A stretch of DNA of 64,000 bases from Escherichia coli (GTDB lineage: Bacteria > Pseudomonadota > Gammaproteobacteria > Enterobacterales > Enterobacteriaceae): assembly GCF_003018255.1 (NCBI RefSeq), contig NZ_CP027440.1. One strand, given 5' to 3'. The position numbers were made by a program, and so were the translations under genes. Shown here piece by piece: positions 4,417 to 59,738 of this stretch. The stretch's first letter is position 1, and each line of letters opens with the position of its first letter. Under the pieces are notes generated by a model. The model did not search any database. It worked only from the letters and a program-made list of their open reading frames with translations, and was not told the DNA's origin.

Positions 4417-4491
4417 TGGCTGGGGTACGAGGATTCGAACCTCGGAATGCCGGAATCAGAATCCGGTGCCTTACCGCTTGGCGATACCCCA
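4417..4491 (-). tRNA. glnX: tRNA-Gln (anticodon CUG)
   Basis: 75-nt reverse complement matches the E. coli tRNA-Gln sequence ending CCA; anticodon loop UUCUGAU; ends verified against overlapping ORF codons. Confidence 0.95.
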
Positions 4492-4528
4492 ACTGGGTGC
4501 ACTTACAAGGTAAGCGTCTTGAATAAAT

Positions 4529-4603
4529 TGGCTGGGGTACGAGGATTCGAACCTCGGAATGCCGGAATCAGAATCCGGTGCCTTACCGCTTGGCGATACC
4601 CCA
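4529..4603 (-). tRNA. glnV: tRNA-Gln (anticodon CUG)
   Basis: Identical 75-nt copy of the CUG isoacceptor. Confidence 0.95.
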
Positions 4604-4651
4604 ACAAATTGGTTTTTGAATTTGCCGAACATATTCGACACATTCAGAATT

Positions 4652-4728
4652 TGGTGGCTACGACGGGATTCGAACCTGTGACCCCATCATTATGAGTGAT
4701 GTGCTCTAACCAACTGAGCTACGTAGCC
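4652..4728 (-). tRNA. metU: Elongator tRNA-Met (CAU)
   Basis: 77-nt reverse complement GGCTACGTAGCTCAGTTGGTTAGAGCACATCACTCATAATGATGGGGTCACAGGTTCGAATCCCGTCGTAGCCACCA. Confidence 0.95.
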
Positions 4729-4743
4729 AGATTGTTTCTTCGA

Positions 4744-4818
4744 TGGCTGGGGTACCTGGATTCGAACCAGGGAATGCCGGTATCAAAAACCGGTGCCTTA
4801 CCGCTTGGCGATACCCCA
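4744..4818 (-). tRNA. glnW: tRNA-Gln (anticodon UUG)
   Basis: 75-nt tRNA-Gln with anticodon loop UUUUGAU. Confidence 0.95.
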
Positions 4819-4852
4819 ATAACCGGGCGGTGAACCGCTTATTCGAAGAATA

Positions 4853-4927
4853 TGGCTGGGGTACCTGGATTCGAACCAGGGAATGCCGGTATCAAAAACC
4901 GGTGCCTTACCGCTTGGCGATACCCCA
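4853..4927 (-). tRNA. glnU: tRNA-Gln (anticodon UUG)
   Basis: Second copy of the UUG isoacceptor. Confidence 0.95.
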
Positions 4928-4950
4928 TCCGTACAACGCTTTCTGGTGAA

Positions 4951-5035
4951 TGGTGCGGGAGGCGAGACTTGAACTCGCACACCTTGCGGCGCCAGAACCT
5001 AAATCTGGTGCGTCTACCAATTTCGCCACTCCCGC
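4951..5035 (-). tRNA. leuW: tRNA-Leu (anticodon UAG), long variable arm
   Basis: 85-nt reverse complement GCGGGAGTGGCGAAATTGGTAGACGCACCAGATTTAGGTTCTGG...CACCA. Confidence 0.93.
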
Positions 5036-5043
5036 AAAAAAGA

Positions 5044-5120
5044 TGGTGGCTACGACGGGATTCGAACCTGTGACCCCATCATTATGAGTGATGTGCTCTA
5101 ACCAACTGAGCTACGTAGCC
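5044..5120 (-). tRNA. metT: Elongator tRNA-Met (CAU)
   Basis: 77-nt copy of the metU sequence; first gene of the operon. Confidence 0.95.
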
Positions 5121-11790: not shown

Positions 11791-13737
11791 ATGAATATTT
11801 TAGGTTTTTTCCAGCGACTAGGTAGGGCGTTACAGCTCCCTATCGCGGTGCTGCCGGTGGCGGCGCTGTTGCTGCGATTCGGTCAGCCAGATTTACTTAA
11901 CGTTGCGTTTATTGCCCAGGCGGGCGGTGCGATTTTTGATAACCTCGCATTAATCTTCGCCATCGGCGTGGCATCCAGCTGGTCGAAAGACAGCGCAGGT
12001 GCGGCGGCACTGGCGGGTGCGGTAGGTTACTTTGTGTTAACCAAAGCGATGGTGACCATCAACCCAGAAATTAACATGGGTGTACTGGCGGGTATCATTA
12101 CCGGTCTGGTCGGTGGTGCAGCCTATAACCGTTGGTCCGATATTAAACTGCCGGACTTCCTGAGCTTCTTCGGCGGCAAACGCTTTGTGCCGATTGCCAC
12201 CGGCTTCTTCTGCCTGGTGCTGGCGGCCATTTTTGGTTACGTCTGGCCGCCGGTACAGCACGCTATCCATGCAGGCGGCGAGTGGATCGTTTCTGCGGGC
12301 GCGCTGGGTTCCGGTATCTTTGGTTTCATCAACCGTCTGCTGATCCCAACCGGTCTGCATCAGGTACTGAACACCATCGCCTGGTTCCAGATTGGTGAAT
12401 TCACCAACGCGGCGGGTACGGTTTTCCACGGCGACATTAACCGCTTCTATGCCGGTGACGGCACCGCGGGGATGTTCATGTCCGGCTTCTTCCCGATCAT
12501 GATGTTCGGTCTGCCGGGTGCGGCGCTGGCGATGTACTTTGCAGCACCGAAAGAGCGTCGTCCGATGGTTGGCGGTATGCTGCTTTCTGTTGCTGTTACT
12601 GCGTTCCTGACCGGTGTGACTGAGCCGCTGGAATTCCTGTTCATGTTCCTTGCGCCGCTGCTGTACCTCCTGCACGCACTGCTGACCGGTATCAGCCTGT
12701 TTGTGGCAACGCTGCTGGGTATCCACGCGGGCTTCTCCTTCTCTGCGGGGGCTATCGACTACGCGTTGATGTATAACCTGCCGGCCGCCAGCCAGAACGT
12801 CTGGATGCTGCTGGTGATGGGTGTTGTCTTCTTCGCTATCTACTTCGTGGTGTTCAGTTTGGTTATCCGCATGTTCAACCTGAAAACGCCGGGCCGTGAA
12901 GATAAAGAAGACGAGATCGTTACTGAAGAAGCCAACAGCAACACGGAAGAAGGTCTCAATCAACTGGCAACCAACTATATTGCTGCGGTTGGCGGTACTG
13001 ACAACCTGAAAGCCATTGACGCCTGTATTACTCGTCTGCGCCTTACCGTGGTTGACTCAGCTCGCGTCAACGATGTGATGTGTAAACGTCTGGGGGCTTC
13101 TGGGGTAGTAAAACTGAACAAACAGACTATTCAGGTGATTGTGGGCGCGAAAGCAGAATCCATCGGCGATGCGATGAAGAAAGTCGTTGCCCGTGGTCCG
13201 GTAGCCGCTGCGTCAGCTGAAACTGCGCCTGCAACTGCCGCGCCTGTAGCAAAACCGCAGGCTGTACCAAACGCGGTGTCTATCGCGGAGCTGGTATCGC
13301 CGATTACCGGTGATGTTGTGGCACTGGATCAGGTTCCTGACGAAGCATTCGCCAGCAAAGCGGTGGGTGACGGTGTGGCGGTGAAACCGACAGATAAAAT
13401 CGTCGTATCACCAGCCGCAGGGACAATCGTGAAAATCTTCAACACCAACCACGCGTTCTGTCTGGAAACCGAAAAAGGCGCGGAGATCGTCGTCCATATG
13501 GGTATCGACACCGTAGCGCTGGAAGGTAAAGGCTTTAAACGTCTGGTGGAAGAGGGCGCGCAGGTAAGCGCAGGACAACCGATTCTGGAAATGGATCTGG
13601 ATTACCTGAACGCTAACGCCCGCTCGATGATTAGCCCGGTGGTTTGCAGCAATATCGACGATTTCAGCGGCCTGATCATTAAAGCTCAGGGCCATGTTGT
13701 GGCGGGTCAAACACCGCTGTATGAAATCAAAAAGTAA
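11791..13737 (+). CDS. nagE: PTS N-acetylglucosamine-specific EIICBA component
   Basis: 648-aa ORF, hydrophobic N-terminal EIIC region, then EIIB and EIIA (glucose-family) domains. Confidence 0.95.
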   Translation: MNILGFFQRLGRALQLPIAVLPVAALLLRFGQPDLLNVAFIAQAGGAIFDNLALIFAIGVASSWSKDSAGAAALAGAVGYFVLTKAMVTINPEINMGVLAGIITGLVGGAAYNRWSDIKLPDFLSFFGGKRFVPIATGFFCLVLAAIFGYVWPPVQHAIHAGGEWIVSAGALGSGIFGFINRLLIPTGLHQVLNTIAWFQIGEFTNAAGTVFHGDINRFYAGDGTAGMFMSGFFPIMMFGLPGAALAMYFAAPKERRPMVGGMLLSVAVTAFLTGVTEPLEFLFMFLAPLLYLLHALLTGISLFVATLLGIHAGFSFSAGAIDYALMYNLPAASQNVWMLLVMGVVFFAIYFVVFSLVIRMFNLKTPGREDKEDEIVTEEANSNTEEGLNQLATNYIAAVGGTDNLKAIDACITRLRLTVVDSARVNDVMCKRLGASGVVKLNKQTIQVIVGAKAESIGDAMKKVVARGPVAAASAETAPATAAPVAKPQAVPNAVSIAELVSPITGDVVALDQVPDEAFASKAVGDGVAVKPTDKIVVSPAAGTIVKIFNTNHAFCLETEKGAEIVVHMGIDTVALEGKGFKRLVEEGAQVSAGQPILEMDLDYLNANARSMISPVVCSNIDDFSGLIIKAQGHVVAGQTPLYEIKK

Positions 13738-38600: not shown

Positions 38601-39300
38601 GCTGGGGCGCAGGGTGGCAAAACGGGTATGGCGGCGTGAACGGGACCTGACGGGCTGGATGTCGCTGTCACGGAAACCGGAAGTGACCTGGTACGGCTGG
38701 GACGGCGACCGGCTGACCACAATACAGAACGACAGAACCCGCATCCAGACGGTTTATCAGCCGGGGAGCTTCACGCCACTCATCAGGGTCGAAACTGCCA
38801 CCGGTGAGCTGGCGAAAACGCAGCGCCGCAGCCTGGCGGATGCGCTTCAGCAGTCCGGCGGTGAAGACGGTGGCAGTGTGGTGTTCCCGCCGGTGCTGGT
38901 GCAGATGCTCGACCGGCTGGAAAGTGAAATCCTGGCTGACCGGGTGAGTGAGGAAAGCCGCCGCTGGCTGGCATCGTGCGGCCTGACGGTGGAGCAGATA
39001 CAAAACCAGATGGACCCGGTGTACACGCCGGCGCGAAAAATCCACCTGTACCACTGCGACCATCGCGGCCTGCCGCTGGCGCTTGTCAGCACGGAAGGGG
39101 CAACAGAATGGTGCGCAGAATACGATGAATGGGGCAACCTGCTGAATGAAGAGAACCCGCACCAGCTGCAGCAGCTCATCCGCCTGCCGGGTCAGCAGTA
39201 TGATGAGGAGTCCGGCCTGTATTACAACCGCCACCGCTATTATGACCCGCTGCAGGGGCCAGGGAAAGATCACGTAACGCTGCTTTTTTGTACTAAATAA
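35614..39300 (+). CDS. rhsC: Rhs-family protein (RhsC-like core), C-terminally truncated: no DPxGL cleavage motif and no toxin domain
   Basis: 1228-aa GC-rich ORF with a PAAR-like N-terminal motif (KPAARQGD) and many YD repeats; it ends ...[11 protein letters not shown] plus 13 unrelated residues ([13 protein letters not shown]) and a stop. Confidence 0.85.
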
Positions 39301-47139: not shown

Positions 47140-47931
47140 ATGCCTGAAGGCCCGGAGATCCGCCGTGCAGCGGATAACCTGGAGGCGGCGATCAAAGGCA
47201 AACCACTAACTGATGTCTGGTTTGCCTTCCCGCAGTTAAAACCTTATCAATCACAACTTATCGGTCAACACGTTACCCATGTGGAAACGCGTGGTAAGGC
47301 GTTGTTAACTCATTTTTCCAACGACTTAACGCTCTACAGCCATAATCAGCTTTACGGCGTCTGGCGCGTGGTTGATACCGGCGAAGAGCCGCAGACTACG
47401 CGAGTATTGCGGGTAAAACTGCAAACGGTTGACAAAACCATTCTGCTTTATAGCGCCTCGGATATTGAGATGTTGACGCCGGAACAACTGATCACGCATC
47501 CGTTTTTACAACGAGTCGGCCCCGATGTGCTGGATCCGAATCTGACGCCGGAGGTGGTAAAGGAACGGTTATTGTCGCCGCGCTTTCGTAACCGTCAGTT
47601 TGCTGGATTACTGCTCGATCAGGCGTTTCTGGCTGGGCTTGGCAATTATTTGCGGGTGGAGATCCTCTGGCAGGTTGGGTTGACTGGAAATCATAAAGCG
47701 AAAGATCTCAGTGCGGCGCAACTGGATGCACTCGCACACGCGTTACTGGATATTCCTCGATTTTCCTACGCTACGCGGGGGCAGGTGGATGAGAATAAGC
47801 ATCATGGGGCGCTGTTTCGCTTTAAGGTTTTTCATCGTGATGGCGAACTGTGCGAACGCTGTGGCGGCATCATTGAGAAAACCACGCTGTCATCTCGCCC
47901 GTTTTACTGGTGCCCTGGCTGTCAGCACTAG
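47140..47931 (+). CDS. nei: Endonuclease VIII (DNA glycosylase/AP lyase)
   Basis: 263-aa [31 protein letters not shown]... (N-terminal PEGPE catalytic motif), C-terminal zinc finger CERCG...CPGCQ. Confidence 0.95.
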
Positions 47932-48974
47932 GCCGTACGTTTCGGCGCATAGGTTGAAATAAACCGCGCAATGGCAGGTCCCGTCAGCAAAATACTGAAC
48001 AGGCGCAGGGTTTGCATCGCCATGATGAGCGCCATATCGGCATTGCTCCCTGCGGCGATGACCGCCACGGTATCAAGCCCGCCGGGGCTGGTGGCGAGGT
48101 AGGCGGTCATAAAATCAATATGCATAAACCGGGTCAGCCCCCACGCCATACCCGCACAAATAGCCAGCAGAGCAAAAATCGACAGCAGGATTTGCGGTAG
48201 CGGGCGCAATGCCCGCAGTAAGATTTGTTTATCGAAACCAAGACCAATCCGCCAACCAATTGCCATATACGCCATCGCAAGCAGCCATTCCGGTAGTTCG
48301 ATGGTGATGAGCTGACCAGACTGGAGCACTGCGCCCGCCAGCATCGGGATGAGCATCGTGCCGGAAGGAAGACGTAGCAAGCATCCCACTGTACCGGCAA
48401 CGACCGCGAGCAAAATCGTAAGCAGGAGATTAATGCTCACTGGCGGAAACCAGACGATCTGCTGGTTAACCGCTTCAGCGTTATCGCCCAGCATCATGCG
48501 GGTGACCAGAACAGCGGCCCCTGCGACGAACAGCACTCGCAGATATTGCATAAACGCCACCAGGCGAATATCTGCGCCGTAATCTTGCGCCATAGCGACC
48601 ATTGCCGCCGCGCCGCCAGGAGAAGAACCCCAGGCACCGGTATTTCCAGGCAGTGAGCTATAGCGCACCAATAACCAACCCACGATGGCGCTGGAAAGTA
48701 ACGTCACCAGTAAAATAGCTAACACAATCGGCCAGTTCACCGCTAGCGTGGTCAGGATCGAACCGGTCAGGTTTTGCGCAATCATGCAGCCAAGAATGGC
48801 CTGGGCGGCGAGAAAAGCGGAGCGGGGAAGTTGCAGAGTAATTCCGCGCATACTAAAGATGATCCCGGCGATCATCGGCCCAAGTAATAGCGCCGCCGGG
48901 AGATGAACCGCGAGGAAACCAATTGAAAGGAGAAGTGAGAGCACACATAACATTCCCCACTGCAAAACTGGCAT
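47928..48974 (-). CDS. abrB: AbrB-family inner membrane protein (regulator of aidB)
   Basis: Track ORF 47928..49052 trimmed to the ATG at 48974: [37 protein letters not shown]..., 348 aa; its 3' end overlaps the nei stop by 4 nt (convergent). Confidence 0.85.
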
Positions 48975-49089
48975 CCTTCGTTCCCTCATTATTTTTTCTT
49001 TGGTGTATCGATACAGCATAAAGAAAGCCGGGCCAGGAAAAAATAACAGCAATCAAGGAAAAGGGGAAAATCAGCAATTTTCTGAAAGA

Positions 49090-49118
49090 GAGGCCCTTTA
49101 CTAACTGCAAAGGGCATC
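49090..49118 (-). terminator. Putative terminator hairpin downstream of ybgO
   Basis: GCCCTTT-actaactgc-AAAGGGC stem-loop just after the ybgO stop; the U-tract is weak. Confidence 0.35.
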
Positions 49119-49126
49119 ATGATAAA

Positions 49127-50188
49127 TTAGTTATAGTTAATCTTAAAAAGCACCACTGTATCGAAGGGACCCGCTTCGATGGGGGTGCCGGGAATGGACG
49201 AAAGTTCAGCCGTATAGGTTTTTTCGTAGATCAGCATATCGCTGGTGAAATCAGCATATTCGCTGTATTTGTTGAAAGTATAGGGTGAAGAATTTTCATC
49301 CAGCAAACGTAGCTTCAGTCCATTACCAATCAGCAGTGCTTTATCCTCTTCAATCAATGTTTCTTCGGTATAAAACGAAGAGCTGACCTTAAATCCGTCG
49401 GTGCACTGGTCATTTTGTGATTTTGTCGTCTTAATACTGAATGTTTTCGACATTGTGTGGCGGCGAATATCCAGCAGGTTAAATTTACCAAAATCAATCA
49501 CCTGTGTTTCTGGTGAAATAGAAAAATTGACGCTGCAATCCAGTACACGAATGTTTTCCAGACCAGTAATATGGTATTTCAGGTTTTGGGCGGTAGGGTC
49601 TTCGTTAACGCTACCGGCACCATCAAATTGCACGACGATGTAGTCGCTAAGCGAACTTTGATAATCATGCGGCGGTATTTCGCGAATCTTAACGTATAAC
49701 CGCATACGAGCAAGAAAGGTTCGCGACATGTGAATATTAGCGGGGTCACCCGAGCATATTTTGTTCTGCCAGCCCATCGCGATAATCTGCTCAGGGGTAT
49801 AAATGTTAATGTTCTTACTGTCGATACACTGGTTGGTGTCGATGCGGCTTTTCCCCAGACTGGCATCGTAATCGACACCATTGTATGTCACGCCGAGTTG
49901 ATAATAACGATCCTGTACCCCCGGGTAGGGGTTTACCCATGCGTAGACATGTTCGCTTTCAAAGTTGCCGTTGGTATTGTTGTCACAATAGACGGGAATT
50001 TTAATATCGTCAGATTCCCAGATCTTATCGCCGGGTTTGGCATTACCTGGCACAGCAAAGGGTTGAATCGCTTCCGATTTTTCTACCGTTCCGCCGGAAG
50101 TACCAAAATAGCAGTTCAGCGCTAGCGCAGACTTCAATGGCAGAAATACCAGACAGATGACGAGCAACACTCCCTTGCCAGCACTCAT
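49127..50188 (-). CDS. ybgO: Putative fimbrial adhesin-like protein (tip subunit of the ybgD operon)
   Basis: Track ORF 49127..50218 trimmed to the ATG at 50188: [23 protein letters not shown]... (signal peptide), 353 aa; last gene of the chaperone-usher operon. Confidence 0.8.
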
Positions 50189-59620: not shown

Positions 59621-59738
59621 GTAGGCCTGAGAAGACGCGCAAGCGTCGCATCAGGCAACCAGTGCCGGATGCGGCGTGAACGCCTTATCCGGCCTACAAG
59701 TCATTACCCGTAGGCCTGATAAGCGCAGCGCATCAGGC
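59621..59738. repeat. Cluster of three REP units (BIME) in the sdhB-sucA spacer
   Basis: gtaggcctgagaagacgcgcaagcgtcgcatcaggc / gccggatgcggcgtgaacgccttatccggcctac / gtaggcctgataagcgcagcgcatcaggc, alternating orientation. Confidence 0.75.

Follow-up and report, generated by a model that had tools for sequence, protein, structure and literature searches.

Introduction

There are several descriptions pertinent to Escherichia coli genes that meet tail to tail. Lillo and Krakauer (Biol Direct 2007, PMC2174442) found that overlap lengths have a mode at 4 bp, gave CTAA, TTAA, CTAG and TTAG as the convergent tetramers, counted 58 convergent overlaps in E. coli and discussed the terminator problem, 20% of such genes having a predicted rho-independent terminator inside the partner. 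A later count gave 75 convergent overlapping pairs in E. coli (Huvet and Stumpf 2014, PMC4161906). As to convergent excludons, nei-abrB is among the 165 pairs that ExcludonFinder (NAR 2025, PMC12288877) gives as having overlapping transcripts in 50% or more of the 58 MG1655 RNA-seq samples.

Termination is the other side of such arrangements. Bidirectional intrinsic terminators between convergent genes were reportedly described by Ju, Li and Liu in Nature Microbiology in 2019, and Peters et al. are said to have documented in 2012 the Rho-dependent termination of untranslated 3' read-through and of antisense RNA. The mechanism of bidirectional intrinsic terminators between convergent genes has also been studied (bioRxiv 10.1101/2022.10.23.513370).

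The overlap of nei with abrB considered here is real, and the arrangement is an ordinary one, already annotated, classed and listed. Very probably it is a tail-to-tail stop overlap that came from loss of a spacer, with read-through being ended by Rho, and neutral or nearly so. The finding in itself matters little, as E. coli annotation has carried the overlap for decades, its class has been described, and the pair stands in a transcriptome-wide list. How a convergent pair manages at such a junction nevertheless has practical consequences, which are considered below.

The junction and its two genes

In the window, by which is meant the whole 64,000-nt stretch of E. coli DNA that was analysed, nei occupies 47140..47931 on the + strand (263 aa), and the window sequence and ORF list place its stop, TAG, at 47929..47931; the end of its ORF, + strand 47920..47931, reads TGT CAG CAC TAG. 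On the − strand abrB occupies 47928..48974 and ends with a TAG that is the reverse complement of CTA at + strand 47928..47930. The 4 nt common to both coding sequences, CTAG at 47928..47931, hold both stop codons, with C47928 being also the third base of the last nei codon (CAC) and G47931 pairing with the third base of the last abrB codon (GCC). An earlier note on this DNA had reported convergent nei and abrB coding sequences with a 4-nt overlap; the window sequence, ORF list and RefSeq annotation bear out its coordinates and count, and the gene names and both stop positions that it gave are correct. It was also right, on the evidence of the annotation and a terminator scan, that there is no intergenic space for a terminator.

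A single junction is not a matter for estimates of chance; what counts is whether both ORFs are real genes, which they are, and whether relatives share the arrangement, which they do. The nei product matches the NCBIfam equivalog NF007763 with 500 bits (cutoff 252) over positions 1-263 of 263 and carries the Pfam domains Fapy_DNA_glyco, H2TH and zf-FPG, which identifies it as Endonuclease VIII, in keeping with RefSeq. Solved structures of E. coli Nei, PDB 1k3w and others, match it with E=2e-175. Their 262-aa chain corresponds to residues 2-263, and the nei stop is thereby experimentally anchored. The gene is the last of the co-oriented string ybgI-pxpB-pxpC-pxpA-nei, and Gifford and Wallace reportedly described it in 2000 as the terminal gene of its operon.

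The other protein, 348 aa from the annotated ATG at 48974, matches PF05145 in Pfam (E=1e-98) and, in two stretches, the NCBIfam family TIGR03082, ‘membrane protein AbrB duplication’. Its RefSeq product name, ‘AbrB family transcriptional regulator’, is a misfit with a 348-aa membrane-protein family, and searches of Pfam and NCBIfam gave no match to a DNA-binding domain in it. As far as its sequence tells, ‘transcriptional regulator’ seems to be a name inherited from the family rather than a demonstrated function. Identity with the small SpoVT/AbrB-type transition-state regulator of Bacillus was considered and rejected in view of the 348-aa length, the double TIGR03082 match and PF05145.

Could the overlap be an artefact of annotation, with one of the stops not being a real protein end? 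The earlier note had named a true stop elsewhere as something that would overturn it. Nothing specific speaks for this: a mechanical ORF for abrB is longer by 26 codons at its 5' end, reaching a TTG at 49052, and this difference leaves the 3' end unaffected. The Nei structures end at the nei stop, codon 264 is the end of nei at each of the 80 loci of the comparison given below, and the NCBIfam and Pfam domains run to near the C-termini of both proteins. The C-terminal tail of AbrB has the same length in relatives whose abrB does or does not overlap nei, Salmonella enterica arizonae included, and this constancy indicates, by sequence comparison, that the abrB stop is sound. With the Nei structure, the full-length match to NF007763 and the AbrB tails, misannotation is effectively refuted, and that there is no true overlap is scarcely credible.

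Among the five convergent junctions in the annotated neighbourhood of the window that of nei and abrB is the sole overlapping one, the spacers at the other four being 42-153 nt.

Avoidance of CTAG is well known in E. coli. The 64-kb window has nine, at 11818, 20219, 25619, 34227, 44871, 47928, 48743, 50122 and 53011, against about 249 expected from base composition, and the one at the nei/abrB junction (47928) is one of these few; CTAA and TTAG are also depleted there, about 3-fold.

Conservation within E. coli

nei and abrB are contiguous, in one place, in 5423 of 5426 complete E. coli genomes. A 2.1-kb nei-abrB query is 100% identical in strain JNE23-011 and 96.4% identical in the K-12 derivative RP437. 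The 4-nt overlap is present in the RefSeq annotation of both of these and of MG1655 (nei 745935..746726, abrB 746723..747769), O157:H7 Z910, Nissle 1917 and strain 98194.

In E. coli OkiPb01694 a P2-like prophage, recognizable by tail genes, late control D and ogrK, lies within the 3' end of abrB (locus L084, 2662..3947). The site corresponds to about window 48018-48028, roughly 100 nt from the abrB stop; abrB of this strain is annotated as a pseudogene ‘missing C-terminus’ and is parted from nei by the prophage. The 3' end of abrB may be an attachment site for the P2 family.

Comparison with JNE23-011, the closest complete genome, also showed that the window is without about 2.7 kb of a region with an Rhs core tip, an immunity gene and an orphan tip, the junction being at about window 39069..39259 and the absent segment being L087 4410..7068. 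The 4.4 kb before this gap has 98.9% identity, versus 99.8-99.98% elsewhere. Judged from these alignments, the gap would fit swapping of toxin and immunity cassettes between strains.

Terminators, hairpins and Rho

No intrinsic terminator was found after either the nei or the abrB stop, whether by a consensus scan or by a relaxed scan for a hairpin and T-rich sequence over 600 nt on each side. There is no bidirectional intrinsic terminator between the genes either, the spacer being zero and a hairpin with a U-tract being absent, and a search of the whole window with Rfam at gathering thresholds gave no family near the junction. Elsewhere in the window, and unrelated to the overlap, Rfam has naRNA4 (nucleoid-associated ncRNA 4; 82 bits) at 59624..59694 (−), by annotation in the sdhB-sucA interval, and a cluster of seven tRNAs, annotated Gln, Met and Leu, at 4420..5120 (−).

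Downstream of the nei stop a single strong hairpin occurs within 600 nt, and it is inside abrB. This GC hairpin, GCGGGC-GCAAT-GCCCGC at 48200..48216 (+), came from the relaxed scan and is made of sequence that on the other strand gives the abrB codons R-A-L-R-P. Might it, together with the following AGTAAGATTTGTTTAT, be an intrinsic terminator of the nei operon embedded in abrB, giving the nei transcript a Rho-independent 3' end some 290-300 nt into the partner? Its ΔG is about −13 kcal/mol, it is about 25 nt upstream of a published termination-region coordinate, and Lillo and Krakauer's 20% of convergent-overlap E. coli genes with a predicted rho-independent terminator inside the partner provides precedent. 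However, the hairpin lacks a proper U-tract: its T-rich run is interrupted and sets in 7 nt past the stem, for which reason the stricter consensus scan does not return it. The published signal, to which we come shortly, is sensitive to bicyclomycin and so is Rho-dependent (PMC7815308). Four E. coli strains and Escherichia sp. L003 keep the stability of about −13 kcal/mol, which falls to −11 to −12 in L004 and L007; in E. whittamii, Escherichia sp. L006 and E. albertii the hairpin has decayed, and Citrobacter and Salmonella are without it. An embedded intrinsic terminator is improbable in our estimation. The hairpin may protect a 3' end; its distribution among these sequences does not lead us to regard it as a selected or conserved element.

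What, then, ends the RNA that runs on from nei? In K-12, Supplementary file 2 of Adams et al. (2021, PMC7815308) has a Rho termination region, antisense to abrB, at MG1655 747036 (+), with a Rho score of 2.87 (p 7.6e-05) and sensitivity to bicyclomycin. The coordinate comes from ratios in 800-nt windows and is of low resolution rather than a precise 3' end (PMC7815308); it is 310 nt past the nei stop and, assuming no indel over these 310 nt, is at about window 48241. Around it is a zone, 48112..48291 (+), with two C-rich and G-poor patches, 48112..48191 and 48212..48291, which together with the K-12 signal is the likely Rho end zone of the read-through RNA of the nei operon. The abrB read-through RNA, antisense to nei, has comparable patches on the − strand within 47628..47867, namely 47748..47867 and 47628..47727, and these are candidate Rho loading sites on the basis of their composition. 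In both read-through RNAs the C/G ratio reaches 2.0-2.9 in 60-nt windows, a range found in 3-4% of such windows across the whole stretch, and as composition alone does not define a rut site, the patches are to be read as suggestive.

The tables of PMC7815308 list neither a Rho region nor a Term-seq 3' end for nei as such, nor have they a Term-seq entry for abrB. The 3' ends of the two genes are absent from the TRS supplements, PMC10349824 has only a row for nei of Klebsiella aerogenes, and we found no nucleotide-resolution 3'-end map of either transcript in the literature.

At the other end of abrB there is a consensus match to a terminator-like hairpin at 49115..49093 (−), GCCCTTT...AAAGGGC with a T-rich tail, just after the upstream fimbrial gene ybgO, and a match to a sigma-70-like site at 49146..49119 (−), 145 nt upstream of the abrB start. 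Such a terminator and promoter within 49093..49146 would make abrB its own transcription unit.

Comparison across Enterobacteriaceae

A scan for Nei with one genome per species gave 80 loci. A convergent abrB overlapping nei by 4 nt is present at all six Escherichia loci and at eight others labelled Citrobacter or, in one case, as a Raoultella metagenome-assembled genome. The tetramers at the 14 loci are not the same: CTAG is accompanied by CTAA (E. albertii and the loci L015 and L020), TTAG (L009, L011 and L013) and TTAA (L018, L022 and L024), with the overlap being kept throughout. These four are the only tetramers able to hold two opposed stops. On both the nei and the abrB sides the last sense codon always ends in C or T, which the geometry of the overlap requires.

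The earlier note had proposed looking for the overlap in other enterics. It stands across Escherichia and in several Citrobacter but gives way to spacers in Salmonella and in C. sedlakii. In S. enterica arizonae, with AbrB of the same length, 6 nt separate nei from abrB; the spacer in C. sedlakii is 25 nt and that in S. enterica diarizonae 54 nt (L010, 3793..3846), the latter with a REP-like sequence, …gcctggtggcgctacgcttatcgggcctac…. The repeat element of S. diarizonae occupies the spot where E. coli has zero spacer. At two Citrobacter loci about 0.9 kb lies between the genes.

The remaining 61 of the 80 loci, which include Klebsiella, Enterobacter, Lelliottia, Leclercia, Kluyvera, Raoultella, Buttiauxella and several Citrobacter, have no abrB within 3 kb of nei. 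The terminator scan covered 55 of them, the omitted ones being five Citrobacter with an AraC-type neighbour and one with a short flank. A hairpin and T-run, often with an A-tract in front, is present within 140 nt past the nei stop at 38 of these 55, as against none within that distance at the 14 overlapping loci. In the abrB-less loci the hairpin is mostly between nei and a convergent ORF of 427/428 aa whose C-terminus, ...RDFKNDIAR, reads as GltA; L041, L048 and L050 exemplify the order A-tract, hairpin and T-tract between convergent stops. In the Escherichia-Citrobacter-Salmonella group abrB is between nei and gltA, and in E. coli the ybgOPQD fimbrial operon is there also.

In Citrobacter werkmanii the convergent neighbour is an AraC-type ORF of 282 aa whose end lies 2 nt past the nei stop (L012, 3795..4643, −), and four further Citrobacter loci (L014, L017, L021 and L025) have the same sequence downstream of nei. 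In Enterobacter sp. BIGb0383 a 550-aa MFS-like mechanical ORF overlaps nei by 62 nt (L074, 3731..5383, −). In these other lineages, too, nei adjoins a convergent gene, AraC-type or MFS-like, without a terminator.

Read-through and the question of antisense interference

That transcription of each gene must run into the coding region of the other, as the earlier note had it, follows from the geometry, and K-12 data agree. Read-through into the partner gene is supported there by the Rho region antisense to abrB (PMC7815308) and by the listing of the pair as a convergent excludon (PMC12288877). The former concerns RNA coming from nei; that abrB transcripts enter nei is what the geometry and the lack of a terminator would lead one to expect. 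The note had gone on to say that this allows antisense interference. Does the overlap serve to regulate?

If the pair were a functional convergent excludon, the missing terminator would have been selected, and the pxp-nei operon and abrB would repress each other, giving mutually exclusive expression by collision of RNA polymerases and/or by RNase III cleavage of the sense-antisense duplex. Besides the presence of the pair in the 165-member MG1655 list (PMC12288877), it could be pointed out that Escherichia and several Citrobacter retain the overlap through changes in the stop codons themselves, and that at convergent E. coli genes termination is influenced when RNA polymerases collide head-on (bioRxiv 10.1101/2022.10.23.513370). 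Retention across two genera could indeed reflect selection. However, because the coding sequences overlap, an excludon call is nearly automatic for nei-abrB given that both are detectably transcribed, and close relatives tolerate spacers of 6-54 nt, one of them REP-like, as well as the insertions of about 0.9 kb. A spacer that varies in this way among Salmonella and C. sedlakii does not point to a regulatory device kept by selection. The antisense read-through is cut short by Rho some 300 nt on (PMC7815308), and the sole hairpin in that zone lacks conservation outside E. coli. That nei adjoins unrelated convergent genes elsewhere speaks for compaction rather than for a circuit specific to nei and abrB. 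The literature yielded neither anticorrelation, RNase III or reporter data for the pair nor anything on dependence of nei expression on abrB, or the reverse. A functional excludon is accordingly an unlikely account in our judgement, and regulatory antisense interference at nei/abrB is putative and without specific support.

A related and more elaborate thought is that loss of the terminator is held by selection as a switch by which ybgI-pxp-nei and abrB are reciprocally tuned, with Rho setting the reach of the interference. Induction of ybgI-pxp-nei would then send antisense RNA and polymerases into abrB, and induction of abrB would do the reverse, so that expression of a repair enzyme for oxidative damage and of the AbrB membrane protein would be tuned against each other. 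We think this very unlikely. For the pattern as a whole, general compaction where a weakly expressed operon ends is a better fit than a specific nei-abrB circuit.

An ordinary overlap

The reading that we prefer, spacer loss with Rho-ended read-through, can be put as a sequence of events. From the comparison of the 80 loci, rather than from a formal phylogeny, nei facing gltA across a hairpin/T-tract terminator would be the older arrangement. abrB, accompanied in E. coli by the ybgOPQD fimbrial operon, would then have come between nei and gltA, and in Escherichia and part of Citrobacter the spacer would have shrunk to four bases, the tightest packing that leaves both proteins unchanged. RNA polymerase leaving nei, having met no intrinsic terminator, would continue into abrB and make antisense RNA, and since that RNA is untranslated Rho would end the nei read-through a few hundred nt downstream. 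abrB transcripts would presumably do likewise inside nei. Further shortening would damage a protein, and for this reason the overlap would be held stable once reached. The best reading is that the overlap is the neutral or nearly neutral result of spacer loss rather than a dedicated regulatory device.

Tinkering with such junctions calls for some care. Edits to either stop, be they amber recoding, C-terminal tagging or deletions, touch the partner gene, and amber stops that overlap, like those of nei and abrB, reportedly had to be dealt with in the genome-wide TAG-to-TAA recoding projects. From nature's own variants, CTAG, TTAG, CTAA and TTAA, it can be seen which changes are compatible with the overlap and with two intact stops. 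A clean deletion of abrB or of nei takes away the stretch in which transcription of the partner comes to its end and could give polar or antisense artefacts. More generally, the junction illustrates that a convergent pair can do without the intrinsic terminator that is found at the same position in many relatives.

Comparison with known systems

Bidirectional terminators are present between nei and gltA, as A-tract, hairpin and T-tract, at many Klebsiella, Enterobacter, Lelliottia and Kluyvera loci, whereas E. coli nei/abrB has neither the spacer nor a hairpin with U-tract. With Rho-dependent antisense termination (PMC7815308) E. coli nei/abrB shares the K-12 region 310 nt after the nei stop, with C-rich and G-poor patches around it that are suggestive, a likeness known from K-12, for one strand and at low resolution. 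Among the convergent excludons nei-abrB is listed, and its transcripts must overlap if both genes are transcribed, since its coding sequences do; its intergenic distance is −4 nt, compared with a mean of 95 nt for E. coli excludons (PMC12288877), and as regards the defining outcome of excludons, mutually exclusive expression via interference or RNase III, it is only a putative member. It is with the class of 4-nt convergent stop overlaps (PMC2174442) that the match is complete: the genes are on opposite strands, 3' to 3', the tetramer, CTAG, is one of those listed, both stops are true ends (that of AbrB as judged by comparison of its relatives), and the relatives of E. coli use all four tetramers. 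The geometry is exactly the same, and nei/abrB differs from that class in nothing of substance.
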